Positions 1-18,606 of a stretch of 26,046 nucleotides of DNA are shown here, one piece after another. Made by a program: the position numbers and the translations under genes. Position 1 is the stretch's first letter, and each line of letters begins with the position of its first letter. Origin of the DNA: a virus (taxonomy: Duplodnaviria > Caudoviricetes); the IMG/VR virus record IMGVR_UViG_3300024518_001114, positions 1 through 26,046 of that record, one strand, 5' to 3'. The notes below the pieces were generated by a model. It was not told where the DNA came from, made no database searches, and worked only from the letters and a program-made list of their open reading frames with translations.

Positions 1-203
1 GAATCTACCCTTCCTTGCTGTAATTGTTTTACTTTTTCTATTCCGGGAAGAAAACGGTCGGTGGGCTGTTGAGGTGATTGCTGAGATGGTTGTTCGCCTA
101 TCTGAGAAAAGATATCATTTAACTCTTGCTCTGTTGGTAGACTATCCCCAGTTAATTTTACAGTCTTCCCAGTATTCGGGTCTGTTATTCTAAACGTAGC
201 CAT
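1..203 (-). CDS. N-terminus of a probable large internal-virion/ejection protein (runs off the window edge)
   Basis: Not in ORF track. ATG at 203 overlaps the upstream stop (TAATG); frame open to the edge: MATFRITDPNTGKTVKLTGDSLPTEQELNDIF..., an N-terminal pattern I recognise from large podophage virion proteins; follows two ejection-like genes. Confidence 0.65.
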   Translation of the reverse strand, partial: MATFRITDPNTGKTVKLTGDSLPTEQELNDIFSQIGEQPSQQSPQQPTDRFLPGIEKVKQLQQGRVD

Positions 204-1816
204 TATTCGACCTCCACCGTAAATCTTCCAATCTTCTTCGGATGTTTAAAAGGTATATCTTGGAATCTAATTGTTTCTCCGGGTATTCGTTGCTTCTCTC
301 TCGTTGGTTCTGATATTTGATTCAAGTGAGCAGTAAGAGGGCCGTTAACTTCACCTATTATTGCATCTATTTGTGCCTGCTCTTCAGGACTAAGCTGAAC
401 TCTATCGATAACTTGAGATACCTTAGAAATCCATCTCGATAATTCAGGAGAAGGCACATCTTCCGTGGAAATAACTTTTCCTTTTCTATTTTTTATTTCT
501 CTTGTAAAAACTAAATCGTCTACGTCCATCTTGCTAAACTCTTTATCAAAAGATAATCTATTATTCTCTGCCGCTCTTGCGAATCGGAAGAACGTTCTCA
601 TTGTTTCCGCTACCTGCTCTCCTGCCGCTTCCGGTGCTGTATTAGAATCTGGAATAGTCTTGCCTAACGCTTGTAAAATAGAAGCTACCATTCTAACAGA
701 ACCTTCCCCTTTTTCTGTTTGTTGAGATAACATAGGCATCATTTTAAGTAAGAACTCGCTTCTTTTCCCTTCTAATGTTCCTGTTCGTTTAAACTTACTA
801 CCGAACTTTATTGTTTCCGATGTCCCGCCTAATGCTGGAATACCTTTAGGAATATCTCCTACTTTAGTAGCAAACTGTCCAATCTTTTGTTGAGCAAATC
901 CACCTGCGCCACCTTCTTTAACGGCGTCAACATAAACTTGCATAAAGTCTCTACCAACACCGGATACTAACTCTAAATTAGATATCGCCGCTCTTGCACC
1001 TGATTCTATTTTAATAGACCTTTCCGCTCGTTTTGTTTGTTGAGTTTCAAATCCTTTCTCTCTAATAGCTTGAACTTTCTGTTCTGGTGTCTTTTCTTTA
1101 TCTTTATCAAATCTGGGATTCGCAAATAATCTACCACGAAACTCAATAAACGGGGGCTCTTCTTGTTGTCCTGGCTGTACTCGTCGTGATTGTTGCTCCC
1201 CTTGCTGAGCAAATGGACTTTGTCCCTGTGATACTCTTTGCTTAGCATGAACTACAGCTTTATCAACTATCTCTTTAGTAGGTTGTCCACCGCCTAAAAG
1301 ATGGTTCTTCTCTTGTTCTGTTAATGTAGGAACTAATGAAGGTATCTGTACTTCTTTGCCATCAATATCTACTCCAATAGAAAGCTCTGTAGATACTCTT
1401 CCATCTGGTCTTTGTAATGTTCCAAAGAATCCTGGTCCTTTTTGTGTTCCATCATTCCTCGCTCCAAATCCTTGTTGTGAAACACGATTACCTTGTATAT
1501 CTCCAAAACCACCACCCACTAAAGATTGAACTAGTCCTTGCCCAGCCAAAGGATTGAGCGGATTTAACCCCCCCTGTCTTGATGTTGGTTGTAACGCCCT
1601 TTGTTGTCCTAACTGCGATTGAACTTGTCCAGATTGTTGCCGCCCAGAAGCGATAAATCCCCGTTCCTCTGCCTCTGCTCTAAATGATTCTAATTCGTCT
1701 TTTGCTTTCTGTTTCGCTAACGTCGCCTCAAACGTTGCTAACTCAAAAGCGTGTCTCTGCTTTAATATATTCTGAGCGAAATTGCCAAAATCTATTTTTA
1801 CACCTTCACGTGCCAT
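203..1816 (-). CDS. Putative internal virion (ejection) protein, Gln/Gly-rich N-half with an embedded compact domain
   Basis: 537 aa, AGGAG RBS, low-complexity helical composition, position downstream of tail genes. Confidence 0.6.
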   Translation of the reverse strand: MAREGVKIDFGNFAQNILKQRHAFELATFEATLAKQKAKDELESFRAEAEERGFIASGRQQSGQVQSQLGQQRALQPTSRQGGLNPLNPLAGQGLVQSLVGGGFGDIQGNRVSQQGFGARNDGTQKGPGFFGTLQRPDGRVSTELSIGVDIDGKEVQIPSLVPTLTEQEKNHLLGGGQPTKEIVDKAVVHAKQRVSQGQSPFAQQGEQQSRRVQPGQQEEPPFIEFRGRLFANPRFDKDKEKTPEQKVQAIREKGFETQQTKRAERSIKIESGARAAISNLELVSGVGRDFMQVYVDAVKEGGAGGFAQQKIGQFATKVGDIPKGIPALGGTSETIKFGSKFKRTGTLEGKRSEFLLKMMPMLSQQTEKGEGSVRMVASILQALGKTIPDSNTAPEAAGEQVAETMRTFFRFARAAENNRLSFDKEFSKMDVDDLVFTREIKNRKGKVISTEDVPSPELSRWISKVSQVIDRVQLSPEEQAQIDAIIGEVNGPLTAHLNQISEPTREKQRIPGETIRFQDIPFKHPKKIGRFTVEVE

Positions 1817-1829
1817 AGTTTGTCTCCTA

Positions 1830-2906
1830 TTAATTTCTTAAATCGGCGAACACCTTGCTTAGACTTGAACTACTTGTTCCCCCAATAGGTTGAGCAGTCG
1901 TTGCGCCACCCCCAACCCCTTGATTTATACCTAATAATTGTCTTAATAATTCATTTTGTTGATTCTGTTGACTACCCGGAAATAAACTAGGTTGTAACGC
2001 TTGACCTAATTGAAGCGAATCACCTAAAGAAATAGGGGAGTTAGTTCCACCCAATAATGCGCCAAGATTACCACCCAATCCGGCTCCTATTGAAGCACCT
2101 CCTAGCCCGCCACCGAGAAAGAATCCTGCACCTCCACCCAATAACGAACCAAACGAACTAATAGCCTGACCTTCGGCTGCTCTTCGTCTTTCATCCTCTT
2201 GTAAATCCAATGCACGTTCTTGAGAAAGCAACCCTACTCTAGATTGCTCTTCTATTAATCTATCCTGAGCTGATAATTGAGCGGTTTGGAAATCTTTTAA
2301 CGCTTGCTCTAAATCTGCATCAAATTGTGTGCCTTTTTGTAAAAAGTCTTGACGTTGTTCGATTCCAGCTAATGGATTTATAATCTGTGATATCGGGTCA
2401 ATTCCTAATAACCCTTGTAATGTCAACTCTCCACGTCTTTGATTCTGATTAGAAAGAAACTGCCCTATGTTTCCTATCGTCGGCCCTATCGCTTCAGCGA
2501 ATAACTCAGGAAATGCCGACTCTATCCCACCTAAAGAAGCTCGATGTCCAGCACTTCTTTCCGCTCTTCTTAACATATTACCAAACGTAGAGTCTGCAAC
2601 TCCTTGCTCAAAATTGCTAGGTTGGAATCCTTCAAAGAATTGACTAGCTGTAGCAGGGTCTTGAAGAAAACCAAGCCCCGTTTCTCTTGAAGTTAATCCT
2701 AACGGAGCAATCTCTTGTCCTCTGCCTACTCCAAAATCAAATAACTCCTGGCCAGTTGCAAAATCAGGAACATTTGGCCCGACAAAAGGCTCTCTATCAG
2801 GTAAAGATATCGGAGCAATAGGGTCTCCTTTACTGTCTTTAGGTCTATCAATTTCAGATAAGCCCAGGCTTAATACGCCCGCTGCAATTCTTGAAAATAA
2901 TCCCAT
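1830..2906 (-). CDS. Putative DNA ejection/pilot protein with glycine-zipper hydrophobic segment
   Basis: 358 aa, AAGGAG RBS; GSLLGGGAGFFLGGGLGGASIGAGLGGNLGALLGG segment typical of membrane-inserting ejection proteins; synteny. Confidence 0.6.
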   Translation of the reverse strand: MGLFSRIAAGVLSLGLSEIDRPKDSKGDPIAPISLPDREPFVGPNVPDFATGQELFDFGVGRGQEIAPLGLTSRETGLGFLQDPATASQFFEGFQPSNFEQGVADSTFGNMLRRAERSAGHRASLGGIESAFPELFAEAIGPTIGNIGQFLSNQNQRRGELTLQGLLGIDPISQIINPLAGIEQRQDFLQKGTQFDADLEQALKDFQTAQLSAQDRLIEEQSRVGLLSQERALDLQEDERRRAAEGQAISSFGSLLGGGAGFFLGGGLGGASIGAGLGGNLGALLGGTNSPISLGDSLQLGQALQPSLFPGSQQNQQNELLRQLLGINQGVGGGATTAQPIGGTSSSSLSKVFADLRN

Positions 2907-2926
2907 TTGAATCTCCTTTATTTAAA

Positions 2927-4387
2927 CTATTGTCTATGTCCTAGCGATGTTCTAAAAAGAATCTCCGCTGGTGTCATTCTTTTATATAATATTCTTATTC
3001 CGTCTATATCGCCATTCCACCAATCTGCACTAGAGTTCTGGTTTGTCCCAATATTAAATCCAGATATCGCACTCACATTACCATTACCTGCATCATCTCC
3101 ATCCCCAACATCTACACCATTAACATAAACAGTTGAAGCAGCAGAACTATCCCAAACCACAACAATGTAAGCCCATTGTCCTGTCCCGTTGCTAGATAAA
3201 CCATGTGCTTCACTAAAAGTCTCATCGCCTGAAGCAGTTTTAATTTGTCCAGTTATAACGGTATCTGTCATAGCAACCCTTATAACATTATTAGTTATAT
3301 CAGATATAATAGCTTGTGTTCCTGTAGTTGCTTTATTAACCCACGCCTCAACAGTAAGCTCTGACGTTATACTATCAAAGTCGGCGTCATCAGCTATTAC
3401 AACCTTCTCCTCTGACCCGTCGTAGTCATAACATTCTGCACTTACTTTCCCTAAAACTAAATCTGTGCTTCCCAAATTTGTAGGTGTAGCAGCCTTTTGT
3501 GTACGAGACCTATCTAAGGTTCGGTCTGAATACGATAACAAGACATGGGTATCTTCTTCCCAATAAGAACCAGCACCACCCCATTCAGGAGCCGTAGCTG
3601 CATTATTCATTCTTAATACTTGCCCACCTGCCCCCTTAGCTAACCTAGTAAGAACATTAGAAGAACGATAATAAACATCTCCGTCAGCATCAGAACCTAT
3701 TGACATTGTTGGAGCACCATCTATTGTTACTGCACCGATAGTCCCTGAGTCTATATCTACGCTATCCATATCAACGCTACTAAAGTTTATCGTATTAGTC
3801 GTATCCGAAAAGGTTAACGTATTCGCAGTATGCGTTAATGTTATATCACTACCATCCCAGTTAATAATACCTCCAGAACCGAAATGTAAATCGTTAAGTC
3901 CGAGAGCAGTCGTACCTATATCCAACAACTCTGTTTTTAATGGAATACTAGCAGAGATAGAGCCTAAGATTTTGATATCGTCTCCAGTAGCACTCCCTAA
4001 CGTGACGTTACCTTGAAAATCTGCCGTACCTGTAAACGTATTATTGCCAGAGAACGTTTGAGTATTGGCGAGCATAGCTACCGCCCTGAAACTACTGCCA
4101 TCATCAAAATATAACGTATCATCTGACGTTAAGAATACAGTTCTTCCTTCATTCCCTGCCGCTGGTAAAGAACCTAATATCTCGTGAAATCTAAAACCAT
4201 TCGTAGTATCTGCGTTTGTATTGTTAAGACCACCATTTATCTGGTTTGTATTAAGATTCCATCTTTGATTTAAATTAGACGCTGTTAGCGTATCTCCTGC
4301 TCCGTATTGTGGCATATCTACAACGTCAGCATATACTGGTGTAACTAATAATATAAAGAATAGAAATATGTTTAGTTTTTTAAACAT
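2927..4387 (-). CDS. Tail fibre/spike-like protein with C-terminal LamG/concanavalin-like domain and N-terminal signal peptide
   Basis: 486 aa; fibre-like repeats (ANTQTFSGNNTFTG; GDVYYRSSNVLTRLAKGAGGQVL); LamG motifs LTVEAWV, WAYIVVVWD, VYVNG, WNGDIDGIRI; N-term MFKKLNIFLFFILLVTPVYA/D. Confidence 0.75.
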   Translation of the reverse strand: MFKKLNIFLFFILLVTPVYADVVDMPQYGAGDTLTASNLNQRWNLNTNQINGGLNNTNADTTNGFRFHEILGSLPAAGNEGRTVFLTSDDTLYFDDGSSFRAVAMLANTQTFSGNNTFTGTADFQGNVTLGSATGDDIKILGSISASIPLKTELLDIGTTALGLNDLHFGSGGIINWDGSDITLTHTANTLTFSDTTNTINFSSVDMDSVDIDSGTIGAVTIDGAPTMSIGSDADGDVYYRSSNVLTRLAKGAGGQVLRMNNAATAPEWGGAGSYWEEDTHVLLSYSDRTLDRSRTQKAATPTNLGSTDLVLGKVSAECYDYDGSEEKVVIADDADFDSITSELTVEAWVNKATTGTQAIISDITNNVIRVAMTDTVITGQIKTASGDETFSEAHGLSSNGTGQWAYIVVVWDSSAASTVYVNGVDVGDGDDAGNGNVSAISGFNIGTNQNSSADWWNGDIDGIRILYKRMTPAEILFRTSLGHRQ

Positions 4388-5997
4388 TACTCACGTCTCC
4401 AGCGTTTGGGGTCACTAAATATTGTAGCTCTTTGTAATATAACACTCTGTGATGAAGCTGTATTCGTTACCATCATTTTCATCTTTTTAAACTCTCCATA
4501 GTTCTGTAACTGAAAGGTCTTTCTCGCTACTCCGCTATTAGATAACTGCGTTGGGAGTGTAACAGGTAATGTTACCGATTGTCCCGCAAGACTAACTGTT
4601 CCAGCCGTTTTCCATCCAGTATTATCTAAGTTTATATATACAGTAGCGTTATAGTCTCCTGTCGGGTCAAACTCTACTTCAATATCGTCTATAACCTTAA
4701 ATATCTCCGGCTTCTCGAAATCTATTGACCTTGATATCCAAGCGAACTCTATTCCTTGCTGAGGGTCTTGTCCTGATGTAGTAGTTTGAGGTCCTTCTTG
4801 AAAGTCTCCTGTCGTACCCGTAAAGACTTGTAGCACCCTTCCATCATTAGCATCTGTATAATAAAGTTTATTATTAAACTCTATCCACGCTGAAGGGAAC
4901 CAACCTTTAATTATATACCAAGCTTCTGTAAGGAAATCGAATACTAAAACTGTATTATTAACTGTAGACGTTCCTGTTGGGATTGCGATTATATACTTAT
5001 TATCAAACAACACAGCACAAGCTTTTGACATCTGTGTTTTATTTAAATTAAACCCGTTCTCATTCGTTCCTTCAAAGATATCCTGAATAGGCTTTGATAC
5101 CATGTCTACTAATATCTTATCAAACTCTGAACGTATTAAACTTCTAATCGCTACGGGCTCACTCGACATGAACCATTGGTCGTTACCTAAACTCACCACA
5201 GAACGCGGTGCTGGTGTCCCTATAACCGTGCTGATAGGCTGTACAGTCCACCCACTTAACACAGCCCCTTCTATATCTAATACAAATATACTCCGTTCTT
5301 TATATACAATTAACTCATTTAAGCGATAAGGCATTAACCTTATAATAGCTTGCCCATCTCCTGTATTAATTTTAATAATATCAGTAGAAGTAAACTTTGT
5401 CGGATTCAAGTTATTAGAGAAATATATCCAATCGGTCTCTGTCGTAGCCCCACCTAAGAATAGATAATTCCTTAACCACGCCCCTGTAGTTGCTGTTGGT
5501 GGTGAACTAGGATATATTGAAGATTGAAAAAACTTACTGCCATTCCACCACCCTGTATTATCCGAACCATTTAATACGAATATATTGTCATTCGCTTGAA
5601 CAAACTCTGTATCTTTATTTATAGTTAAAGGAGATGCGTCATTAGCAGAACGCCAAGTAGTATCGTTAGATAAAGAAGCTATCACTCTTATCCCTGACGC
5701 CGCCATTATATACGAAGTTGTCTTATCTGGGTCGAATCTACCTAACCCTCGAAATGGTGTGCTTCCTACGTCTACATTAAATAACGCTTGTCCTTTACGC
5801 TTTGAAATCTTTCCTAATCTATTTACTACAACGTTAACAGCCGAAGCCGCTTGATTCTCTGGTAATAAATCAGCCAAATCAAAACTGTTCATTCCTTTTG
5901 AGAAATCACGTATTCTTATCTGTTCAAGACCCTGCTGTGCAAACAACGAGGATGCTACTAAAAGAACTATAAATATTGAGGTTACAAATTTCTTCAT
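4387..5997 (-). CDS. Tail tubular protein B/nozzle (P22 gp10/T7 gp12-like beta-propeller) with N-terminal signal peptide
   Basis: 536 aa beta-rich; DFSKGMN...NVVVNRLGKISKRKG start of mature region, LIVYKERSIF, IGTPAPRSVV, VLVFDFLTEAW; follows adaptor gene with ATGA overlap; N-term MKKFVTSIFIVLLVASSLFA/Q. Confidence 0.7.
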   Translation of the reverse strand: MKKFVTSIFIVLLVASSLFAQQGLEQIRIRDFSKGMNSFDLADLLPENQAASAVNVVVNRLGKISKRKGQALFNVDVGSTPFRGLGRFDPDKTTSYIMAASGIRVIASLSNDTTWRSANDASPLTINKDTEFVQANDNIFVLNGSDNTGWWNGSKFFQSSIYPSSPPTATTGAWLRNYLFLGGATTETDWIYFSNNLNPTKFTSTDIIKINTGDGQAIIRLMPYRLNELIVYKERSIFVLDIEGAVLSGWTVQPISTVIGTPAPRSVVSLGNDQWFMSSEPVAIRSLIRSEFDKILVDMVSKPIQDIFEGTNENGFNLNKTQMSKACAVLFDNKYIIAIPTGTSTVNNTVLVFDFLTEAWYIIKGWFPSAWIEFNNKLYYTDANDGRVLQVFTGTTGDFQEGPQTTTSGQDPQQGIEFAWISRSIDFEKPEIFKVIDDIEVEFDPTGDYNATVYINLDNTGWKTAGTVSLAGQSVTLPVTLPTQLSNSGVARKTFQLQNYGEFKKMKMMVTNTASSQSVILQRATIFSDPKRWRRE

Positions 5998-6938
5998 GCC
6001 CTATGACCTTGTATTAATGATGATGTCATTTTATGCTGGAACGTCGGTCCTAACTTGGTTGTCTGATTTAACATTAACTGGCTTAACGCCGCTTGTGCTT
6101 TTTGTATCATTAAAGAAGCTCTGTTAATATCTTCTTTTTCTTGTACCATGGCTGTCGCCGCTGTATCAAAAATTAAATAATCGTCTGCGTCTATAAATGG
6201 ATAATCTTCGTCATCTACTAATCTCCTGAACTTCTTCTTATAAATAACTCGCATACTATCAGCACTTCCAGGAATTAAACCCATATCAAATGCTTTATGT
6301 CTCGATACTCTCTCAATATCAGATAACGTAGTCAATGCTGTTAAAGATGAGTTTCGTAATGTAACATAACCTGTAGTATCTGCTGATTTACTCACGTTTA
6401 GTATTTTATAAAAGGTAGTCGTCCCCGAAACATCTGTCGTCCCATTTAAAGTTAGTTCTTCAAACCCTATTATAGTTAATGCTGAATCTAAATACCCTTC
6501 AATCCTCACTGTTTGCGTTGTATCGGCTGTACTCGAACTATCCACTACTATCGTATCACCACTCGTTGATATCTGCACCTTGACGCCGACAACCTCTGTA
6601 AAGTAAGCGCTACCAGCGTCATCTTCAGTAGCATCTGCGATGTTGGCTATATTAGCGTCAAAATACTCTTGATATGTCTTAATTGCAATAGGTTTATCAT
6701 TTGTAATATCGTAAAATCTTATCGGCTTCTCGAAGTCGCTAGGCATATAATATCTTTTAGTTCCGTCTACTGTTGTGAAATTATGAACGTTTTGTAGCTC
6801 TATGAAGTGGTCGTAACTATTATATAAAGTCTGCAAGGAAAGATTAACCCATACTTTTATATTATTAGCGTAAGCCGTATCCTCCGAACGTTGAACTAAC
6901 TTACCGATGGTTGATACTATCTCTCCGAAATTATACAT
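5994..6938 (-). CDS. Head-tail adaptor/tail tubular protein A-like
   Basis: 314 aa; helical N-term then TVDGTKRYYMPSDF and C-terminal DDEDYPFI...YLIF pattern; AGGAG RBS; immediately upstream of nozzle gene; no signal peptide. Confidence 0.65.
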   Translation of the reverse strand: MYNFGEIVSTIGKLVQRSEDTAYANNIKVWVNLSLQTLYNSYDHFIELQNVHNFTTVDGTKRYYMPSDFEKPIRFYDITNDKPIAIKTYQEYFDANIANIADATEDDAGSAYFTEVVGVKVQISTSGDTIVVDSSSTADTTQTVRIEGYLDSALTIIGFEELTLNGTTDVSGTTTFYKILNVSKSADTTGYVTLRNSSLTALTTLSDIERVSRHKAFDMGLIPGSADSMRVIYKKKFRRLVDDEDYPFIDADDYLIFDTAATAMVQEKEDINRASLMIQKAQAALSQLMLNQTTKLGPTFQHKMTSSLIQGHRA

Positions 6939-6946
6939 AATTGCTC

Positions 6947-7162
6947 CTAAAGTTTTCTTTTAGTAGGAAAAGGTAAAAAACTATTTATCTTTAAAACCGT
7001 AAAGCTTCTCGTTCTTTCAACTACAGTATATCCAATTATAGCTCTTATCTTCTGTCCAGGTTTAACGTCTCCAACGGTAGGCGCAACTTTCTGAGAAATA
7101 GAGAAGTCCGCTGGCATATGGAACTGTACTGTCTGGATTTCTCTTTTAATAGATTTTGTCAT
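6947..7162 (-). CDS. Hypothetical protein (small beta-rich, basic)
   Basis: 71 aa, ATGA overlap with upstream gene. Confidence 0.6.
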   Translation of the reverse strand: MTKSIKREIQTVQFHMPADFSISQKVAPTVGDVKPGQKIRAIIGYTVVERTRSFTVLKINSFLPFPTKRKL

Positions 7163-7395
7163 ACCGTTCTTTTCTTGTTTATTACTAAGATATCAGCACT
7201 TTTAATCTCTAACGCATAAATCATTATATCGTCTGCGTTCTCATCAGGCGTTAAAGAAACGCCTATAACTTCTACCATAGCATCTAACTGTCCTTTCTCT
7301 CCGACTTCCATAGCTTGAGCAAAAGGAAACCTATTGTCTAATACCACCGTAGGCTTGGGTCTTTCCAAGCCACTTGACATTCTGCTTTCAAACAT
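7159..7395 (-). CDS. Hypothetical protein (small beta-rich, acidic; possible minor virion protein)
   Basis: 78 aa, TAATG overlap with upstream gene. Confidence 0.6.
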   Translation of the reverse strand: MFESRMSSGLERPKPTVVLDNRFPFAQAMEVGEKGQLDAMVEVIGVSLTPDENADDIMIYALEIKSADILVINKKRTV

Positions 7396-7775
7396 TATGA
7401 GCCGTCACATAATCCATCTGCATCGTTAGAACAAGATAAAGTTCCATTTAATGCGGAACATTCTGTCCATCCAGCATCATCTGTATCTCTTATCATTATA
7501 CAACCACCGCTAGAACCATCTAATGCTAATTGTCCCCACCCTGTTCCTATATCAGTATGAATAAACGTGGCTGGACTAGCGACACCTATCCCCACCTTTA
7601 ATGCACCAGAATTAGTGGTGATAGCAACCGAACCATCCGTACTATTTGAAATCGTTTCACTATTCTCAAGTGTGAGGTCTGTTTTAAATGTACTTGTCTG
7701 ACCAGGAGCGAATCCACCAGCCCACACGTTTCCGCACATAAAAAGAAACGCTATTAAAAGAATATACTTTTTCAT
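7395..7775 (-). CDS. Secreted-type small protein, four Cys in mature part
   Basis: 126 aa; AAGGAGG RBS; MKKYILLIAFLFMCGNVWA/G signal peptide; Thr/Ser/Gly-rich. Confidence 0.75.
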   Translation of the reverse strand: MKKYILLIAFLFMCGNVWAGGFAPGQTSTFKTDLTLENSETISNSTDGSVAITTNSGALKVGIGVASPATFIHTDIGTGWGQLALDGSSGGCIMIRDTDDAGWTECSALNGTLSCSNDADGLCDGS

Positions 7776-7784
7776 CTTGCCTCC

Positions 7785-8162
7785 TTAATATGTAATAACA
7801 ACATTTACAGGACTCGCTGTTCCCGTTTGTGTCTTAAAAGCTATCGAGTTTGTCTTAAAATCGGATAAACTTATAGCCGTATTTGCGTCTAAAAAGAACT
7901 GTGACGGCTTTGTGGAATCCGTAGAAGTACACGAACCACCAATAGACTCGCCTTTTATACTTAAACAAATAGCAGTTGTTGAACCATTATGTACCGTGAC
8001 ATCTCTAGATTCAAACTCTTCTGGTAATGTTATAGTAGTCTGTGCTGTAGTAACATTATACCATTGAGCAAATGTATTACTTAACGCCCCTCTCTTACTC
8101 TGTGCATACGCAGATGTCCCTATCATTAAGACCATCAACATAGCTACGATTAGTTTTTTCAC
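7785..8162 (-). CDS. Secreted-type small beta-sandwich-like protein (possible virion decoration)
   Basis: 125 aa; GTG start with AAGGAGG RBS; MKKLIVAMLMVLMIGTSAYA/Q signal peptide; two Cys. Confidence 0.75.
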   Translation of the reverse strand: MKKLIVAMLMVLMIGTSAYAQSKRGALSNTFAQWYNVTTAQTTITLPEEFESRDVTVHNGSTTAICLSIKGESIGGSCTSTDSTKPSQFFLDANTAISLSDFKTNSIAFKTQTGTASPVNVVITY

Positions 8163-8183
8163 CTTTTTTCCTCCTTGTTGAAA

Positions 8184-10649
8184 TTAAACGCTTCTTAAAC
8201 TTCTATCTTCGTCTAAACTGCTTAACGGTTGTCCTTCTTTTAAAACTTTATTCTTCATAGCTGGTGTAATACGAAAGCCTTTTTGGTTTAGTTTAGGAGC
8301 ATTTTGAATAGCTTTTTCTTTTGTACTATAAATAGTTGCAATACCATCTGTGTCTATTACTCTCCAAACTCTTTTTCCTTTTTCTGGTCCTCCCTCAATC
8401 TTTGTTTCTTGAATCTCTGCGCCTAAATTTATCTCCTCGACCTTCGCATCCTTATCTAACGTCTTAATATACTTATCTGCTACCCTTGGTAGACTAACGT
8501 CATAGGTTTGTTTTAATGCTTCGCCACCGACTTTGAGGTCTTTTTCAAACAAAGTTCCACTAATCCTATCATCCCCCGTTATCTTAGAAGCAGTCTCTTT
8601 GCCAATAACATTAGATAGATTCTTTCCAGTTATATCTGCTGGATTCATCCCACTAGCCCGCAAAGTATTTACAATTTTTCCATCACTATCAATAGAAAGC
8701 TTTAACATAGGTTCAATATCAGCTTTTTCCCTAAAAATGTTTAAAATCTTGTTTCTCGTTGTTGATTGAGTAACCCACTCCATCCTGTCTACTTGCTTAC
8801 TCAAATCAAACCTATCGGCTTGTTGCTCTCCGCTTGTCCACGCTACGACATCTTTCCCGTCATCTATCGCTTTCTTTACCATTTGCTTCACCATAAACTC
8901 TGTATTGTTATTCGTAGCAAACTTAGGTAAAGACTTTAACTGCTCGTCTGTTACGTCATCTACATTAGAGTTTATCTTCTGCATCTCTTCAACGAATAAA
9001 ACCTTATCTCCTTCGCTCGAAGTTCTATCGTTTACTCTTAACCAAGAAAATACATTAGGTTCGTCAAAGGCGTGGGATTTGAATTGTTGTTGATTTCTGA
9101 AATGTTCTATCTGCTCTCTAGTGAGACCACCAACTCCTTCTTTTTCTAATAAATCTAATTGAGCTTTAAATATCTTTTTATGAATCTCTCCTTTATCTTT
9201 AAATCTTTCCATTAATTCCTTTAATCTAATTTTTTCATCCTCCAATATTTGTTCTTCCGATATTTCTTCTTTAACTGGCACCTTAAACTTCAACTCCTGA
9301 TAGTTCTCCCCTCCTGGGAGTTGGTATTGTTGCCATTTAGTAGGTTTTCCAGTAAAACCTCTTGCTCTTAATTGTTCTGCTGTTCCTGCCTGGGTTTCAA
9401 TAATATCATCGAGTAATTGTTTTCCTTGTTCTCCAAGAAGTTCATCTTCTTCCTGTTCAGAAAGTTCAAGATTAATTGCTTTCGTAACTATATTATCAAT
9501 ATCTTGTCTACCAGTTCTATTGGTAACTATTGTATGTAATTTACTTATCTTTGGTGTTGCTTCTACTAACTTTGGGTCGTTACCAAGTATTGATACCTCA
9601 AACGTGTTCTTATTCTCTTTCACGAAATCCAGTAACTCTTGCTTCGTGAACTTACCTTTACTCGCCAAGAAACTATCTAACTTACCCTCTTCTATATCAG
9701 CTTTCTTCCCGAACTTTACTATCTGTGCTTTCGCTTGCTGACTCGTTAGCGTATTCTGTTTTAAGCCCTTAATAGCTTTCTCGGTCTTTGTGAAGAATGG
9801 TTCTTTCGCTATCTCCCCACCCTCTTGGGGTTGGGCTAAGTCTTTCTTTCGTCTAGCCTTCATTCTTCGGTTATGAATCTTATCAACTTCTCCTAAAAAA
9901 ACCTTCTTCTTATCACTCAAATTAACAAATTCTATCTGTTCTTCTCGTGAATTTAGTCCTTGGATTCCTAAGCTGTTGCCTCTTCTAACAATCTTATCTT
10001 CTGCTGGAAACTCTTTTTCCCATAACTCACTCGGAGGTGTAAAACTATCTGGGTTTATATCTTTATTTACATTCTTAATTGCCTCATCTACTGTCTTTGG
10101 TGTTATCTCCCCACCCTCACTAAAAACAACACCACTATCCTGCTGTGGTATCGGGGTCTCTAGCCTAACTTCCCCCTGTGGTGTCACTATCGGTCCCTGT
10201 AACTCTGGTAACGCCTGTGGTAACGGAGTCTCTAACCTAACCTCACCCTGCGGTACTGCCCTCGGTCCTTGTAACTCTGGTAATGGTGCTTCTTGTGGTG
10301 TTCCCCCTAACGGTGGTAACTGCGGCGCCCTCATCGCCCCTACTTGTCCGAAAGGATTTAATATATTAAAGTTAATAGGACTCATCATACCTTGTGCAAA
10401 AGGTATCTGAGATTGTATCGCTTGTTGCCTTCTTCCTTCTAACAACCTAGAAAGTAACGCTATCTTATTAGCCGAAGCTATCTTTAAAAGCGTTCCTATC
10501 GCATTACCACCACCTGACGATAACGCTTGCCCTATCCCGCCCTGCTGATTATCGAGCTGACTTAATATCTGCCCTAACCCGCTACGAGAGAGTAACCCAC
10601 CTATATCCGTCTTAGGTTTTTCAAGTAATGATGTATCAACTCTAGACAA
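8184..10649 (-). CDS. Large phage protein, low-complexity N-terminus plus conserved-looking C-terminal domain; function unknown
   Basis: 821 aa; TTG start with AAGGAG RBS; motifs YQLPGGENYQEL, SHAFDEPNV..LRVNDR, KVLFVEEMQ, VAWTSGEQQADRF resemble large virion-associated/polyvalent phage proteins. Confidence 0.65.
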   Translation of the reverse strand: MSRVDTSLLEKPKTDIGGLLSRSGLGQILSQLDNQQGGIGQALSSGGGNAIGTLLKIASANKIALLSRLLEGRRQQAIQSQIPFAQGMMSPINFNILNPFGQVGAMRAPQLPPLGGTPQEAPLPELQGPRAVPQGEVRLETPLPQALPELQGPIVTPQGEVRLETPIPQQDSGVVFSEGGEITPKTVDEAIKNVNKDINPDSFTPPSELWEKEFPAEDKIVRRGNSLGIQGLNSREEQIEFVNLSDKKKVFLGEVDKIHNRRMKARRKKDLAQPQEGGEIAKEPFFTKTEKAIKGLKQNTLTSQQAKAQIVKFGKKADIEEGKLDSFLASKGKFTKQELLDFVKENKNTFEVSILGNDPKLVEATPKISKLHTIVTNRTGRQDIDNIVTKAINLELSEQEEDELLGEQGKQLLDDIIETQAGTAEQLRARGFTGKPTKWQQYQLPGGENYQELKFKVPVKEEISEEQILEDEKIRLKELMERFKDKGEIHKKIFKAQLDLLEKEGVGGLTREQIEHFRNQQQFKSHAFDEPNVFSWLRVNDRTSSEGDKVLFVEEMQKINSNVDDVTDEQLKSLPKFATNNNTEFMVKQMVKKAIDDGKDVVAWTSGEQQADRFDLSKQVDRMEWVTQSTTRNKILNIFREKADIEPMLKLSIDSDGKIVNTLRASGMNPADITGKNLSNVIGKETASKITGDDRISGTLFEKDLKVGGEALKQTYDVSLPRVADKYIKTLDKDAKVEEINLGAEIQETKIEGGPEKGKRVWRVIDTDGIATIYSTKEKAIQNAPKLNQKGFRITPAMKNKVLKEGQPLSSLDEDRSLRSV
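10143..10286 (-). repeat. Two-copy 72-bp in-frame tandem repeat
   Basis: Units 10143-10214 and 10215-10286 encode LPELQGP(RAV/IVT)PQGEVRLETP(L/I)PQ. Confidence 0.9.
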
Positions 10650-10659
10650 AACTTCTCCT

Positions 10660-10866
10660 TTATCTATTCAATCTGTCTCTCTCTAACTCTGCTCGTTGCT
10701 CGTCTGTTATATAATCAAACGATTCTTTGGTTACATTCAATCCTCGTTGTCTTAATATCTTACCTGAACGAGAACCTTCCCACGTCCCAGTGATGTCATC
10801 CCTGATTAATTTTCCTTTGTGCCACGGTGGTAATCCTCTACTTCTAATTTTGCTTCCTCTACCCAT
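10660..10866 (-). CDS. Small basic hypothetical virion-module protein
   Basis: 68 aa; GGAGG RBS; overlaps end of the ligase-like gene by 8 nt. Confidence 0.65.
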   Translation of the reverse strand: MGRGSKIRSRGLPPWHKGKLIRDDITGTWEGSRSGKILRQRGLNVTKESFDYITDEQRAELERDRLNR

Positions 10867-12034
10867 TTATCTTCCTCCACTCCCCGTAAAATAAACCTAA
10901 TGATATAATTAACAACATCCCCGAAACCGCTGTATGTATCGTGAAAACTCCTAACGCACTTACCATCTGTGCTACGATACAAGAAAAATATATTATCAGC
11001 TCTTTTGACTTATCAAATATTATGAACTTATAAAACAAATCTATAATAATAAGCAGTATTAACAACCAACCTATTATACCTAAATCAAAATATGCTTCTG
11101 CGTAATCATTATGTGCGTGTGCGTAAACATGAGTGTTCTGCCTACTCTGATATAAGAACTCGTATTGCGACATCGGTGAGAACCTTTTAAAGTTTCCCAA
11201 CCCGTACCCTAACATCGGATTACACTTAATTGATTTCTTATACTTAACAAAATCTAATACAATCTCGCCATCATTAACGTCCCTAATCGTATTCTTAACT
11301 AAATCTATTCTTTCTTTTACTGCGACATAAGATAAGTTCTCGAACTTACTAAAGAAGATTAACGAACAAACAGCCATAATTAAAACGATAACACCTAGTA
11401 GACTACGCCTTAAGCGTTTATTTATCTTACATGGCATACTATACAAAAGATATCCGTTAGCTATTAAGAACGCTATCCACGTTGATGTCGTTGTTGAACA
11501 CCATAATCCGAAAATAACAAAGGGTATTAACCAAGGACATACCCCCATAACCACAGGGCTTACTACCGCAAAGAACACGCCTATCTGGTTATGGCTTCCT
11601 ACGAACCCTACTGTGTCGTCTAAGGTCATGTCTTTCGTATAACTAAATATCGGGTCTAAGTTAAAGTATTGTAAGATAACCCAGAAACATTGTATCCCTG
11701 CCGCTACTACAATCGCCCAAAGTATTACCTTCCTCTGCTTCTTAGTGAACTTACTTATAGCGTAAATACTTAGAAACGAAAACATCACCTGAACTAACAT
11801 TACTATCGACGTAGGATACTGCTTCGCTACGAAAACCATGTTATACACACAATAAATACCTAACAACGTATATAAGAAATGAAAATTCCAAAGAACAAGA
11901 AATACTCCTACACATGAAAATGAAAATAACGATATCCAATGGATATACCAAACATCCGCTCCCCTCATCGGAATCGCTCCCAACAAAGGGATTGCTACTA
12001 TTCCTGTTACTACTAATAGAAAAATGCTTTTCAT
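10859..12034 (-). CDS. O-antigen ligase/O-oligosaccharyltransferase family (Wzy_C-type, WaaL/PglL-like) integral membrane protein
   Basis: 391 aa with about 10-12 hydrophobic segments; large loop with PMLGYGLGNF and HAHNDYAEAYFDLGIIG signature; GFVGSHNQIG earlier motif. Confidence 0.85.
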   Translation of the reverse strand: MKSIFLLVVTGIVAIPLLGAIPMRGADVWYIHWISLFSFSCVGVFLVLWNFHFLYTLLGIYCVYNMVFVAKQYPTSIVMLVQVMFSFLSIYAISKFTKKQRKVILWAIVVAAGIQCFWVILQYFNLDPIFSYTKDMTLDDTVGFVGSHNQIGVFFAVVSPVVMGVCPWLIPFVIFGLWCSTTTSTWIAFLIANGYLLYSMPCKINKRLRRSLLGVIVLIMAVCSLIFFSKFENLSYVAVKERIDLVKNTIRDVNDGEIVLDFVKYKKSIKCNPMLGYGLGNFKRFSPMSQYEFLYQSRQNTHVYAHAHNDYAEAYFDLGIIGWLLILLIIIDLFYKFIIFDKSKELIIYFSCIVAQMVSALGVFTIHTAVSGMLLIISLGLFYGEWRKING

Positions 12035-12051
12035 TTTATTCTATCCCCCAT

Positions 12052-12079
12052 AAAAGAGGGTGGCTTTTACACCACCCCC
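12052..12079 (-). terminator. Intrinsic terminator-like hairpin after the capsid genes
   Basis: Minus strand GGGGGTGGT-GTAAAA-GCCACCCTC-TTTT; short U tract suggests partial read-through. Confidence 0.65.
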
Positions 12080-12092
12080 GATGATACTTGTG

Positions 12093-12458
12093 TCAACTTT
12101 GGCCGCCTACTACAGTACAAGCTGCTTCCATATTAGTAGCTCCCCAGTCACCCGTAGGATAACTAGAATAAGCACTAATTGTTGTGTGTGATGCTAAACA
12201 AAGGTCTCCAGATTCATCAATCCACAAAATATAATTCGTGGTTGTATCTGTTTCTACTCCTCCTGTCGGACCTTGACCTACTCCTCGCATCATAATGAAC
12301 CCAGGATTACCAGTCGTATTCAAACCAGTAAGACCTAGATTCGATGTATTCGTACGTAAAGTCTCTGTCGGGAATACTGGCTCCCTTGCGACCTGAGCAT
12401 AACAGAGAGTCGCCACAAGTAATACTGCTGAACATACAACAGCGATTCTCTTGTTCAT
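12093..12458 (-). CDS. Secreted-type small protein directly downstream of major capsid gene
   Basis: Start reassigned to ATG 12458 (GAGGAG RBS), 121 aa; MNKRIAVVCSAVLLVATLCYA/Q signal peptide; two Cys in mature part. Confidence 0.75.
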   Translation of the reverse strand: MNKRIAVVCSAVLLVATLCYAQVAREPVFPTETLRTNTSNLGLTGLNTTGNPGFIMMRGVGQGPTGGVETDTTTNYILWIDESGDLCLASHTTISAYSSYPTGDWGATNMEAACTVVGGQS

Positions 12459-12473: not shown

Positions 12474-13388
12474 TTATGCACCTTGTGACCCATAAGTTCC
12501 CATCCAATGAGAATATCCTGTAGAGAATCTCATGCGAGATAGATGTTTTAAATTAGTGGTATCAAAATCGTTACCACGTTTTAAAGCACCTAGTCTAACT
12601 CTCCAGAAGAATTTTAACTTATGGTTTTCTTTCTCTGACAATAATACCCATGCGTCTGTATCTGTTAGATAGTGACCTACGAAATACTGTAAGTCTTTCT
12701 TTCTAAATGCATTGACTTCGTTGTTGGCGACGTATGGTTTATATTCTGACCCTAAAAGCTCTTCTGCTACGTTCCATAAATCAACTGGAACTAAAAGCAT
12801 AACCGCTTTTGTAGGTCTCTTTAATCCTTTTTCATCAACATACTTCTCAATCGCTGTTAAACCAGCAGTTAAAGAAGTTACTGACAAGTCAGCTTGTGTT
12901 GAAGGTGTATTGGATTGTGTGCTTCCATCAAGATTAGGATGTGCCGTGTTAAACAATGCAACTCCGTCAAACCCTGTTACTGTACCATCTAAACCTGTGT
13001 TGATAACGTTAGCTGCTTCTGTCTCTACAGTTTCAATAGCACTTCTTGATAAAGCTTGAGGTAGCTTAGCGAACGTTTCTGGCGTTCTTAGGTTATCCTC
13101 AACCGCTTCCTCAGTTAACTCGTAACCAAGCGCGTATGTCTTGTGAACATAATTCTTTGAAATACCTGGAAGGATAGCATCGTATGACGCTGCAACTCCT
13201 TCACCTTTCTCAGGCATAGTCACAAAACCCGATTCGTAAGAATCTTTCTCTGACTGTTTATCAGAGGTTTCTACATTCATAAACTTAGTGTACTCTTCTC
13301 CCCAACTTGTTAAACCATCTTGAAACATTTCATTCAAGTTAGCGTCAAGAGCATCAACTATTTGTGTTCTAGTTGTAACATTAGCCAT
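12474..13388 (-). CDS. Major capsid protein (Mu gpT-like HK97 fold)
   Basis: 304 aa; HKTYALGYELTEEAVEDN, GFDGVALFNTAHP, LLVPVDL, YLTDTDAW, DFDTTNLK motifs; AAGGAG RBS. Confidence 0.85.
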   Translation of the reverse strand: MANVTTRTQIVDALDANLNEMFQDGLTSWGEEYTKFMNVETSDKQSEKDSYESGFVTMPEKGEGVAASYDAILPGISKNYVHKTYALGYELTEEAVEDNLRTPETFAKLPQALSRSAIETVETEAANVINTGLDGTVTGFDGVALFNTAHPNLDGSTQSNTPSTQADLSVTSLTAGLTAIEKYVDEKGLKRPTKAVMLLVPVDLWNVAEELLGSEYKPYVANNEVNAFRKKDLQYFVGHYLTDTDAWVLLSEKENHKLKFFWRVRLGALKRGNDFDTTNLKHLSRMRFSTGYSHWMGTYGSQGA

Positions 13389-13407: not shown

Positions 13408-13989
13408 TTATATGCCCGCAACGCCACCGTTGAAGATTGATTCGTTAAAGATTACTAACAAGTCTGTATGCTCACTCCAAGTATTTCCAGGTTCATCAAC
13501 TTTATCCATAACTAAAAGTTGTGCTGTACTTGCACTAAGTGCAGATGAATCTACCTCATGTCGTGAACGTGAAGTAGTTGTATCACCTGCAGTTATTACA
13601 ATATCAGCCATGTTAAACCTGTTGCTCGATGTAAGTGTCGTACCTGTATCTGACTGTATCTTAAACAACGCTGTAGGTAACGCTAAAGCTATCTTAGCGA
13701 AACCAGCCGTTGATGAAGGCAGATACTTCGTTGACTGTGAACTGTTAGGATGTCCGATTGGAACTTCATCTGAATCCTGAAGTGCTGTGATAACACCTAT
13801 TACTCTCGTAGGATTAGTTCCTGATGTTGCTATCTTCTGAACTGACCCTGCGGCTGCTATCTCTACGGCATCTCCAACGAATAGATTTGTTCCATTCCCG
13901 CTATCTACTGGGTACCACATAGAAGGAACTTCAGAACCATCTAACATTCTAACTGGAGAGAAACCTTGTGGGGTATCTCGATTTGCCAT
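13408..13989 (-). CDS. Capsid-associated (decoration/cement-like) protein
   Basis: 193 aa; MANRDTPQGFSPVR...LFVGDAV N-terminus of the type found just upstream of this kind of capsid gene; AAGGAG RBS. Confidence 0.6.
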   Translation of the reverse strand: MANRDTPQGFSPVRMLDGSEVPSMWYPVDSGNGTNLFVGDAVEIAAAGSVQKIATSGTNPTRVIGVITALQDSDEVPIGHPNSSQSTKYLPSSTAGFAKIALALPTALFKIQSDTGTTLTSSNRFNMADIVITAGDTTTSRSRHEVDSSALSASTAQLLVMDKVDEPGNTWSEHTDLLVIFNESIFNGGVAGI

Positions 13990-15465: not shown

Positions 15466-15476
15466 TGTGTTCTCCT

Positions 15477-15653
15477 TTATTTTTCCATCAGAATTAAGTC
15501 CGATGAGCTTTTATCCGACCCTATTATCTTCCATCCTTCTGCTGATAACCTTACTACGTTTCTTTTAGCTACATAACGCTGTTTCTTCTTCGTAGACTTT
15601 TTTGGTGATAGAATCTTTTTCTTAATAACCTTATTAGCCTTACCTCTTACCAT
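15477..15653 (-). CDS. Small Lys-rich protein (58 aa)
   Basis: Not in track; MVRGKANKVIKKKILSPKKSTKKKQRY...LMEK; GGAGGGAG RBS, TAATG overlap. Confidence 0.65.
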   Translation of the reverse strand: MVRGKANKVIKKKILSPKKSTKKKQRYVAKRNVVRLSAEGWKIIGSDKSSSDLILMEK

Positions 15654-15742
15654 TACGGTCTCCCTCCTTTTCGTTTAGATTTACCTTTAATCTCCTTATC
15701 TTTAATCGGAGTCTTTCTTTTCATTATTCTTATTGTTGCCAT
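15653..15742 (-). CDS. Small basic peptide (29 aa)
   Basis: Not in track; MATIRIMKRKTPIKDKEIKGKSKRKGGRP; AGGAGGT RBS. Confidence 0.6.
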   Translation of the reverse strand: MATIRIMKRKTPIKDKEIKGKSKRKGGRP

Positions 15743-15756
15743 CTCCACCTCCTAAT

Positions 15757-16211: not shown

Positions 16212-16475
16212 TCATTTGCCATACTTTACCATATTATCTAAACAAGTTACTTCTTGTATTCCCCCGCACTTCCCTGCGTAATAATCTCTTGACCCGCAAT
16301 CTAACGACCTTAACTTACTCATTGTGTTCTTGGCGCATAAATTCATCTCTTCAACTAAATCACACCACTCCTGCGGGTTGCCCTTGAACCACTCCTGGAG
16401 ACGCTCCCTGCGGGCCTTGACCTCCTCCTCCTCCTTGTCCTTGTCCACCTGGCTGTAATACTCCTTGTCCCGCAT
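16212..16475 (-). CDS. Small helical head-module protein overlapping portal C-terminus
   Basis: 87 aa; AAGGAGGT RBS inside portal gene; DYYAGKCGGIQEV pattern typical of post-portal proteins. Confidence 0.7.
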   Translation of the reverse strand: MRDKEYYSQVDKDKEEEEVKARRERLQEWFKGNPQEWCDLVEEMNLCAKNTMSKLRSLDCGSRDYYAGKCGGIQEVTCLDNMVKYGK

Positions 16476-18606
16476 CTTGACCTCCTTGTTGAGGTTGCTG
16501 TGCCGTTGCTAATTGCTGTACTCTCTCTTGCTGCATCATCTTTACAGTTTCGTTTATATGCTGTATTACATTAACTTTTATCTCTTCCGGGATATTGGGG
16601 TCGCCTAATAATACTCTGTGCACTTTAATATGATTAAGATGGTCCTCACCTTCACCCGGAGTTCCAGTCTCTCCCTGCAAGAACCTAGCGTTCTCTTCTT
16701 CCGGCGTCCGTACATTATCCTGTGGAGCGTTAGGCAAGAAAGCACTTAACCCTACTTCGTCTAACTTATCAATTAACCATTTAGTTAAATTAAACAACGC
16801 TTTGATTCCTGGTTGCGTCTGCGGACTAAAGAACGGATTCTGTATCAATAACTGATACGTTCCTATCGCCTTGTTAATCTCTAAGCTCTTATTAACATTA
16901 AGTATATTACCCACCATCTCGAAATCAGGAAGTGAATTAAGTGAAAAATCGTCAAGAGTAATATTATTAAACCTAAATATATTATCTTGGTCTCCCGTTA
17001 TTCTCATAAACTTGTTGGGTGGCATATTGTCTTGATATAACAAAAACCACCTCTTCAGTATATCCTTAATAGTCTTATTCTTACGCTTGATGATAGCGTT
17101 CATCCTTACATTACCCTGCTGAACTACTATCTCCGTTTTCTTAGCCGGAGCATCTGGGTCAGTTCTTGAATCTATCCCCGCCTGAAAATCTGATATCCCA
17201 AACAATAACTGCGCCCATGTATTGATTATCTGTAACATCGTCTGTAGCGAAGCGTTAGGTGCCGGCCATTGGAATAGCTTGACTCCACTCGCATTAGAAG
17301 TAGGATACATAAATCCGTTCTGTAGCTTTATCTTCTCATCTCGCATATTACCTACCGGCTCAAAGAAACCTATCGGATTGTTAGAGTTTACTGTTGCTAA
17401 CACGAACTGATTATATAACGCATCGTAGCCCGTTTGTAAACTCTTCATAAACTCTACTATACCTAACGCCGCTCTACGCCCTTCATCATCAGGCATGAAA
17501 TAATCCATCCCTATTGGTCTCTGCTTCATTGGGAACTTGTTACGTCTTAACTGACACAATACATTAGACTCTATGTTTACTATAGCTATAAACTCATCTT
17601 CTAATTCTTCCATCTTAATCGTCTCTTGGTCGTCTGCGTCTGTCTTTATCATTCTGATACGAAGCCTACCGAAGAACGTTACAAACTGTTTCTCCCACTT
17701 ACCCGCTGGTATCGTATCGCCATCAAAGTCGAACATCTTTGTATCACTTGTCTGTTCGCTTCCCCAATCTTTAATCTCTTGAATAGTTCCAGGGTACATC
17801 TTGCCCGCTAACTGGTCTCTTAGATACTCGTCATACGTTAACCTGGTTCTCATCATCTCCCACTCTGGAGTCTTGCCCATTACTGCGTTCTTAGGCTGGT
17901 AATAGTCTTTCCTTGAGAACGGAACTAACTTAGGACCGTTATATATTAAAACCTCTTCCTCAACTTCTTGAAAGATTGGTTCTTTTGTCTCGATATCGTA
18001 CATCGGTTGGCTAGGGTCTGAGGGATTAGGAATTATCTTACGTTTAATCTGTGTACCATACTCTTTTACCCAATGCATTAAATACGGGGCTTCTCCGTTC
18101 TTTGTGGAGTTATGAAAAAGCCTGTCAATGTTTTCAAACATCTCTAGCTCTTCTCTCGCACTCCAATTCATAAATGTTGTGAGTTTATCGACCTTATCTA
18201 TATCACCTTCTTCGGTTGGCAACACTCTCCCTAAATCTTTAGGTGTGAAGAATACATTCATATAATTACTATGAACGACTTCAACCGATACCGTAGATAA
18301 AGGTGAACGATAATTAGGTAACTCTCCATCGCTTCCTTTAACCTCCGCACGTTGCATCCTGAACACTTCGTCGTTCTCATCCATCTTATCGCAGATATCG
18401 TTATGCTTAGTCTTAACATCGTTGAACCTATCAACTATATACTGTGCGATTCTTTCCCGTTCTAAGATGCTTAGATTCTCAACTAAGAAACCTTCGTTAC
18501 GTTTCTTGAGTTCTTTAAGATACTGCTTTTCATTATCTACTTCAATTTCTTTAATTATATCTTTATCGGGTGTGCGGTTGTTGGGACTGTCTTTAAACTC
18601 TGCCAC
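16360..18606 (-). CDS. Portal protein (podovirus-type)
   Basis: Start reassigned to GTG 18606 (AAGGAG RBS), 748 aa; helical, QLLFGISDFQAG, Gln/Gly tail; downstream of terminase. Confidence 0.8.
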   Translation of the reverse strand: MAEFKDSPNNRTPDKDIIKEIEVDNEKQYLKELKKRNEGFLVENLSILERERIAQYIVDRFNDVKTKHNDICDKMDENDEVFRMQRAEVKGSDGELPNYRSPLSTVSVEVVHSNYMNVFFTPKDLGRVLPTEEGDIDKVDKLTTFMNWSAREELEMFENIDRLFHNSTKNGEAPYLMHWVKEYGTQIKRKIIPNPSDPSQPMYDIETKEPIFQEVEEEVLIYNGPKLVPFSRKDYYQPKNAVMGKTPEWEMMRTRLTYDEYLRDQLAGKMYPGTIQEIKDWGSEQTSDTKMFDFDGDTIPAGKWEKQFVTFFGRLRIRMIKTDADDQETIKMEELEDEFIAIVNIESNVLCQLRRNKFPMKQRPIGMDYFMPDDEGRRAALGIVEFMKSLQTGYDALYNQFVLATVNSNNPIGFFEPVGNMRDEKIKLQNGFMYPTSNASGVKLFQWPAPNASLQTMLQIINTWAQLLFGISDFQAGIDSRTDPDAPAKKTEIVVQQGNVRMNAIIKRKNKTIKDILKRWFLLYQDNMPPNKFMRITGDQDNIFRFNNITLDDFSLNSLPDFEMVGNILNVNKSLEINKAIGTYQLLIQNPFFSPQTQPGIKALFNLTKWLIDKLDEVGLSAFLPNAPQDNVRTPEEENARFLQGETGTPGEGEDHLNHIKVHRVLLGDPNIPEEIKVNVIQHINETVKMMQQERVQQLATAQQPQQGGQDAGQGVLQPGGQGQGGGGGQGPQGASPGVVQGQPAGVV

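Follow-up and report, generated by a model that had tools for sequence, protein, structure and literature searches.

Sec-type leaders on the tail nozzle, fiber and small late proteins of a podophage whose late operon encodes a Wzy_C membrane enzyme

Can parts of a tailed phage be made on the far side of the inner membrane? Tailed phages are taken to assemble the entire particle in the cytoplasm. Here we analyzed a virus record, IMGVR_UViG_3300024518_001114, in which several late genes begin like those of secreted proteins. The window, by which we mean the whole record of 26,046 bases, has its long open reading frames (ORFs) on the minus strand. Pfam and PHROG matches allow it to be read as a podophage late operon, with small and large terminases, GroES, an SU10-type portal, scaffold-like genes, a capsid protein, an SU10-type adaptor, a 536-amino-acid (aa) protein, a LamG-tipped fiber and ejection-like genes. 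The original prediction was that five proteins of the virion module carry Sec-type leaders and that a phage oligosaccharyltransferase encoded in the same gene run may glycosylate them after export. All five minus-strand ORFs are present, each with a basic N-region, a hydrophobic core and the expected cleavage motif: three small proteins that we call SP121 (12093-12458, CYA/Q), SP125 (7785-8162, AYA/Q) and SP126 (7395-7775, VWA/G), the 536-aa protein, which is the tail nozzle (4387-5997, LFA/Q), and the fiber (2927-4387, VYA/D). Their starts are indeed coupled to a ribosome-binding site (RBS) or an upstream stop. AGGAG(G) lies upstream of the starts at 12458, 8162 (GTG) and 7775, whereas two starts overlap a stop: that at 5997 the adaptor stop (ATGA), and that at 4387 the nozzle stop (TAATG).

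Leaders were scored across related phages by a hydropathy and charge rule, not by SignalP: a 10-residue hydropathy of at least 2.2, a basic residue before it and no acidic residue. Counts by gene are of distinct sequences in close loci, and the fiber was counted from its best in-frame start. Removal of duplicates (36 dropped) left 42 close and 18 distant nozzle loci; L-numbers below denote related loci, and P-numbers nozzle representatives. In close loci, the test was passed by 24/24 SP121, 18/18 SP125 and 21/21 nozzle sequences, and by 17/19 fiber matches. It was passed by no capsid (0/27), portal (0/16), adaptor (0/25), decoration-like (0/24) or scaffold (0/22) protein. The division into exported and retained parts is clear-cut. 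Capsid, portal, adaptor and ejection-like proteins had all been described as leaderless, and this held for the first three. The two ejection-like genes (203..2906, minus strand), so named from their position, are read as not exported; of these, the first, at 1830-2906, trips the test in the window (1/12 homologues positive).

The nozzle (536 aa, 4387..5997, minus strand) has the fold of P22 gp10, T7 gp12 and SU10. Its model is confident (predicted local distance difference test, pLDDT, 90), the best structural matches are the tails of Pa223, VP1, P22 and Sf6, and the beta-propeller and platform of the nozzle fold extend over the whole chain. Solved nozzles or hubs (P22 gp10, T7 gp12, SU10, Pa223 and VP1; PDB 8eap, 9jyz, 7z4b, 9nwi, 8zkk) share this fold. 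They differ in lacking what precedes it here, a 20-residue Sec-type leader (5938-5997) ahead of the residue that aligns with their first residues. In the structural alignment, residue 1-3 of the solved chains (Pa223, VP1, SU10, crAss001, P22, Sf6 and T7) corresponds to model residue 23-27, so the leader is an addition ahead of a complete nozzle. The gene is the single one after the adaptor and before the fiber.

A hydrophobic leader was found in 119/120 nozzle homologues (48-100% identity), the one exception having a truncated start. Identity to the window is 21% in the leader core and 58% in the mature nozzle. The residue at -1 is A, S, G or C in 115/119, and K or R occurs within the first 8 residues in 116/119. 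Twin-arginine motifs (0/120) and lipobox-like sequences (2/119) indicate that the leaders are of neither the twin-arginine translocation (Tat) nor the lipoprotein type. Scored without bias, the +1 residue is Gln in 74/119, all from one protein family. Each complete genome (n = 5; 42.6-46.0 kb, with direct terminal repeats in 4/5) has one nozzle match, which bears a leader in all five. No conserved start codon with an RBS was found near the nozzle cleavage site in 30 partly overlapping loci. Because there is one match per complete genome and no conserved internal start, a leaderless nozzle copy is not in evidence. By locus, the leader is present in 38/41 close loci whose nozzle start is complete, to which inspection by eye adds 2, and in 0/17 distant ones. 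The test was passed by six of 141 further nozzle representatives, three of them close-group fragments, with two more recognized by eye. Outside the clade, P0254, P0264, P0243, P0329 and P0351 have leader-like nozzle N-termini at four separate places in the tree. In L125, a close-group nozzle (1052-2689) has a deviating 5' part, possibly a frameshift or a chimera.

Cysteine content differs between the two sets of late proteins. In the late regions of five complete genomes, with leaders removed by a fixed cut at residue 21 and with related rows included, leader-bearing proteins (n = 37) had an even number of cysteines in 20 cases, an odd number in 7 and none in 10; for leaderless proteins (n = 43) the counts were 3, 17 and 23. 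This parity is separate, indirect evidence for an oxidizing compartment, that is, for the predicted export. The nozzle fold, the single nozzle gene, the lack of an internal start, the residues at -1 and +1 and cysteine pairing together give good support to the proposal that outer virion parts are exported, as judged from sequence.

The fiber (486 aa, 2927..4387, minus strand; leader 4328-4387) has a conserved N-terminal domain and a C-terminal LamG domain (PF13385, E 1e-17), and matches phrog_8510, a virion structural protein (E 1e-10). The start of the mature fiber weakly matches genes that follow the nozzle gene in distant phages and lack a leader (E 0.02-0.1). SP125 (7785..8162, minus strand) is conserved in the clade, and its position suggests a virion role; the similar structures found in the Atlas are those of viral proteins without names (score 0.95; template modeling (TM) score 0.66-0.71). 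SP126 (7395..7775, minus strand), with four cysteines after the leader, was seen only in the window genome; it had no Pfam or PHROG match, and no homologue of 7395-7775 was found in the related loci inspected. In L103, a strain almost identical to the window (99.5%), the operon continues past the window end. There, four more leader-bearing late genes follow the ejection-like genes (7443-10774, plus strand), one of which, of 585 aa, is tailspike-like by eye.

SP121 (12093..12458, minus strand) lies directly after the capsid gene and is separated from the gene of the Wzy_C enzyme, here called the ligase, by a terminator-like GC-rich hairpin (12056..12079, minus strand). Hairpins of -10 kcal/mol or lower were found after 28/28 true SP121 genes, 2/30 capsid genes and 0/30 ligase genes, and the T-tract rule was satisfied at only 13/28 of the SP121 hairpins. 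The hairpin suggests that SP121 is abundant, like the capsid protein, and the ligase scarce. SP121 may be an abundant capsid-surface protein, and it is a candidate glycan acceptor. It ends in Ser in the window, and its two cysteines are jointly present or jointly absent in 20/22 sequences. A fold search gave no match for the model (predicted TM score 0.54); gene position and the hairpin hint at a capsid cement or decoration protein.

The ligase (391 aa, 10859..12034, minus strand) has 8-9 predicted membrane segments. Its assignment to the WaaL/PglL family stands insofar as it has a Wzy_C Pfam match (42.3 bits versus a cut-off of 31.7); the name oligosaccharyltransferase is an interpretation that goes beyond Wzy_C membership. 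PF04932 was found in 108/108 aligned homologues and O-antigen_lig in 3, and no member of the 108 has a PglL_A or Wzy_C_2 domain. A profile of these members matches WaaL (7tpg, E 2e-14) and an oligosaccharyltransferase (9rmk, E 3e-11). Across the family, R242, H308, N309 and D310 are invariant, and H306 and E313 invariant or nearly so. H308 (108/108) aligns with the second histidine of the 7tpg HAHND motif, residue 313 by count along the alignment; according to part of PMC9829042, the Wzy_C histidine is required in TfpM. R242 lies in an R-x-x-L-W motif like R265 of 7tpg, a pairing made by eye where HMMER chose another arginine. The enzyme shares a G-x-x-G-x-x-N-x-x-G stretch with 9rmk. The phage enzymes form a clade, and all 112 homologues with contig data lie on contigs of at most 46.4 kb. 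On these features the enzyme is a Wzy_C member not filed under TfpO, TfpM or PglL, and a candidate protein O-oligosaccharyltransferase.

Does the ligase go with the leaders? Scored in loci with at least 4.5 kb upstream, it is present in 20/20 close and 0/12 distant loci, and its linkage to the exported set is strong in the close clade. Ligase distances correlate with those of the nozzle (rho 0.60) and the adaptor (0.69), compared with 0.72 for nozzle versus adaptor (18 loci). The expected co-occurrence holds in the close clade but is incomplete beyond it, where leaders occur without a detected ligase (L030, L034 and Cellulophaga phage phi18:3). Leader-bearing late genes are at 17063-21129 in L030, which also has glycosyltransferases, and at 7211-7963 in L034. 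Conversely, as to whether relatives carry the ligase independently of leader-bearing virion genes, 6/8 distant ligase loci in other phages have leader-bearing neighbors and 2/8 do not. The six (L080, L081, L083, L084, L085 and L087) belong to other lineages with a distant late-region Wzy_C gene, and in L084 the leader is on the gene right after the capsid gene. Given the intermediate loci and the distant leader-bearing nozzles at four places in the tree, export of virion parts seems to have arisen more than once, with no need for a phage ligase.

Sister phages carry other genes in this part of the operon. Upstream of the adaptor or nozzle, L029, L030, L031, L035, L039 and L040 have GT1, GT2 or TPR-bearing genes, and L036 has sugar-synthesis genes. 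The clusters in these operons (L029-L031, L035, L036, L039 and L040) comprise TPR-GT1, GT2, radical SAM, epimerase and aminotransferase genes, and are candidate cytoplasmic virion glycosylation systems. The ligase occupies the glycosyltransferase slot of these sisters, which suggests one job done two ways.

How does this compare with known systems? In the pilA-tfpO and pilin-tfpM pairs, as portrayed in parts of PMC9829042 and PMC12645811, a Wzy_C enzyme without PglL domains likewise lies directly behind a small exported protein, frequently with Ser at its C-terminus. The window enzyme is smaller than TfpO and TfpM (391 versus 420-470 aa, the range given in PMC9829042) and phage-encoded, and its upstream partner SP121 has a leader of the Sec/signal peptidase I type, no Pfam pilin match and, across the clade, a final S/T in just 14/24. 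PglL and PglS are larger (520-600 aa) and combine PglL_A with Wzy_C_2, whereas the window enzyme has Wzy_C only. It resembles WaaL (7tpg) and the PglL-type oligosaccharyltransferase 9rmk in its HAHND histidine motif and Wzy_C domain, but lacks their TRG/SR arginine. Phage-encoded particle glycosylation is described for Che8-type mycobacteriophages in part of PMC11256854. Those phages encode glycosyltransferases, whereas the window has a membrane ligase and no glycosyltransferase found by Pfam scan; the sister phages resemble the Che8-type route more than the window clade does.

For export, the nearest cultured parallel is phi18:3 (Pachyviridae), a podovirus whose gp085-087, annotated as virion proteins by tandem mass spectrometry, have leaders ending A/Q. 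In phi18:3, leaders are on three accessory proteins only, the other annotated virion proteins in the stretch being leaderless. Gln after the signal peptidase I site, the Q-rule, is treated as a mark of Bacteroidota-type export in part of PMC5837995; the nozzles show this feature, and high Q-values occur outside Bacteroidetes too. In PMC10367356, signal peptides of Porphyromonas phage genes, some with the Q-rule, are read as host-modifying, and leaders of capsid proteins as prohead-protease leaders. Titles and abstract openings in the open-access literature yielded neither an account of core tail parts exported through Sec nor one of a virion operon that encodes a phage Wzy_C enzyme. The arrangement is real, conserved and, within the open-access literature searched, undescribed.

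On balance, we think it probable that the nozzle, the fiber and the small late proteins are exported via Sec, matured and glycosylated in the periplasm by the phage enzyme, and joined to the particle at lysis. The starting point is the division already described: capsid, portal, scaffold and adaptor are leaderless, and outward-facing parts bear leaders. Very likely, signal peptidase I would then cut the leader to give a normal nozzle N-terminus, often Gln, while the small proteins and fibers form disulfides. With somewhat less assurance, though still as the likely course, the scarce ligase, made by read-through of the hairpin, would move a host glycan of the undecaprenyl diphosphate-linked (Und-PP) type to Ser/Thr of the exported protein or proteins, SP121 being the first candidate acceptor. 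A ligase in the glycosyltransferase slot of the sisters would mean a switch to another way of glycosylating, paid for by export. Finally, heads closed by the adaptor only, perhaps with a temporary plug, would meet the periplasmic pool upon breach of the inner membrane. Two small genes of 71 and 78 aa, without leaders and specific to the clade, that lie just before the adaptor (6947..7395, minus strand) are candidates for such a plug on position alone. They are often duplicated in relatives (28 and 26 distinct members); a hidden Markov model search at E 0.1 was empty in 44 distant loci, and neither has a solved relative. A bolder version, which we hold to be doubtful, has DNA-filled heads dock across the inner membrane on a nozzle and fibers pre-built and glycosylated in the periplasm by a phage O-oligosaccharyltransferase, so that host glycan covers both the capsid and the tail of the particle, serving as a cloak or an adhesion coat.

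Several observations weigh against the favored account of export, periplasmic glycosylation and joining at lysis. P22 heads lacking gp10 leak, and how DNA would be retained in heads before nozzle addition is unexplained. Nozzle cysteines show no pairing (counts even in 43 cases, odd in 70 and zero in 6), and the L125 nozzle lacks a leader. The contrast between 20 close and 12 distant loci amounts in essence to one clade against its sisters (support 1.0, 127-row tree), not to 32 independent trials. In L030 and L034, leaders are found on genes that follow the ejection genes, the nozzle is leaderless and no ligase was detected; in L080 and L084 the ligase is present and the nozzle leaderless; and L082 and L086 have a ligase lying opposite the capsid genes, with no leader-bearing virion gene seen. 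The ligase profile found no match in the 18/46 coding sequences scanned in phi18:3, despite its leader-bearing virion proteins. As to catalysis, the TRG/SR arginine of 7tpg and 9rmk, which is important in WaaL, is replaced: columns 183-184 are mostly S, T or F, and R is outside the four commonest residues. D-(S/T)-(A/I/L/V/M/T), the Bacteroidota-type O-glycosylation sequon, is not enriched (1.28 times shuffled sequence in the exported set of the window, 0.85 in leader-bearing late proteins), nor was any acceptor motif, D-S/T-hydrophobic being depleted in close nozzles (0.64 of shuffled). C-terminal S/T occurs in only 14/24 SP121. By the account in part of PMC12645811, the Wzy_C domain alone cannot separate O-oligosaccharyltransferases from WaaL.

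There is an unlikely alternative, in which the exported parts still join at lysis but the ligase acts on the host surface, by WaaL-like lipid A-core ligation or serotype-conversion-like linking of chains, rather than on virion proteins. WaaL 7tpg is the top structural-library match, and a length of 391 aa is nearer WaaL (413) than TfpM/TfpO (420-470) or PglL (550-600), the sizes of these last being those given in PMC9829042. The unenriched sequon, the occurrence of export without a detected ligase, and the existence of at least one temperate relative (integrase plus repressor) would also fit. Conversion genes are usually sporadic, however, whereas the ligase gene, which lies in the same orientation as the capsid and tail genes that flank it, is kept in 20/20 loci and diverges with the tail genes. 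Its place in the glycosyltransferase slot, and the G-x-x-G-x-x-N-x-x-G stretch held in common with the 9rmk oligosaccharyltransferase, likewise count against this alternative. A less probable reading dispenses with transfer altogether: the leaders would be uncleaved or late-cleaved anchors, the tail would be built at the inner membrane, and the ligase-like protein would serve as a scaffold or gate. It would solve the head-sealing problem and accommodate both the loss of the third ligase arginine and the unpaired nozzle cysteines. Yet the small -1 residues (115/119) and the Gln at +1 (74/119) point to cleavage, a basic N-region places the mature part outward, and H306, H308, N309, D310, E313 and R242 are invariant or nearly so, as in an active site.

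Could the exported proteins lie outside the virion altogether, having evolved from tail genes into decoys in the periplasm or into factors for superinfection exclusion? SP121, SP125 and SP126 match no solved virion protein, as such a view would have it. But the sole nozzle gene of each complete genome bears a leader and lies directly after the adaptor gene, the particle would lose all its post-nozzle fiber genes, and phi18:3 virions do contain leader-bearing proteins; we regard decoys as very improbable. Least credible of all, and largely refuted already, is that the leaders are annotation artefacts with true starts downstream. An in-frame start codon does lie near the cleavage site in a few loci. 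These downstream codons are unconserved and lack an RBS, whereas the annotated starts are coupled to upstream stops or an RBS, and leader character is kept at 21% identity in 119/120 nozzle homologues. The original view that the leaders are not ORF extensions is upheld by these data.

If virion parts are exported as we propose, a head-completion part, and not merely an accessory fiber, is apparently among them, and assembly would therefore span two compartments. An exported nozzle raises the question of what seals the head until it arrives. The phage Wzy_C enzyme would represent a new glycan-ligase branch, possibly a compact protein O-oligosaccharyltransferase for glycoengineering. It would also give phages a second way of glycosylating their virions. 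The sisters, with their cytoplasmic glycosyltransferases, and other lineages in which export is partial would form an evolutionary series. Searches for cultured members found no cultured phage close to the window phage; the export half could be studied in culture in phi18:3.

Relatives encode SLT domains, a leader-bearing M15 peptidase and a weak BamE-like lipoprotein, which suggest a diderm host with peptidoglycan; one relative has an integrase and a repressor. Among 120 listed homologues of this integrase, besides itself, only two name an organism, both Omnitrophota at 36-39% identity. Binning had placed the integrase-bearing record with Obscuribacterales and L062 together with an archaeon, both being phage-sized contigs. 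Omnitrophota is a weak lead as the putative host. Outside the late operon, L097 has the leader-bearing M15 peptidase (3552-4055, minus strand), a candidate exported endolysin, L099 a PMT_2-like membrane glycosyltransferase (2838-4445, minus strand) and L094 a PglD-like acetyltransferase (15258-15887, minus strand).

Further late genes of the window, all on the minus strand, are as follows. A GroES-like co-chaperonin (18838-19242), kept in close relatives, lies between the terminase and the SU10-type portal (16360..18606, PF23899, leaderless). A leaderless protein (13408..13989; phrog_37556, unknown function), decoration-like by position, precedes the leaderless major capsid protein (12474..13388; PF25209, phrog_371). 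The leaderless SU10-type tail adaptor is at 5994..6938 (PF24175, E 7e-11). A small leaderless basic gene (10660..10866) overlaps the ligase stop and is conserved in the clade (22 distinct members; one weak distant match, E 0.038). Between the ligase region and SP125 is an inserted 821-aa leaderless gene (8184-10649) with no Pfam or PHROG match; its single match in a related locus, with 29% identity over 331 aa, is to a stretch of L017 between the portal and scaffold genes. In L013 (4916-6508) and L022 (5169-6879), the capsid gene is split in two by an inserted ORF, which may be an endonuclease-bearing intron. Extra blocks of fiber-like genes occur in or just after the ligase region of L096 (5381-12162) and L070 (12004-18135); in the L096 block, three fiber-like genes are leaderless and three bear leaders.

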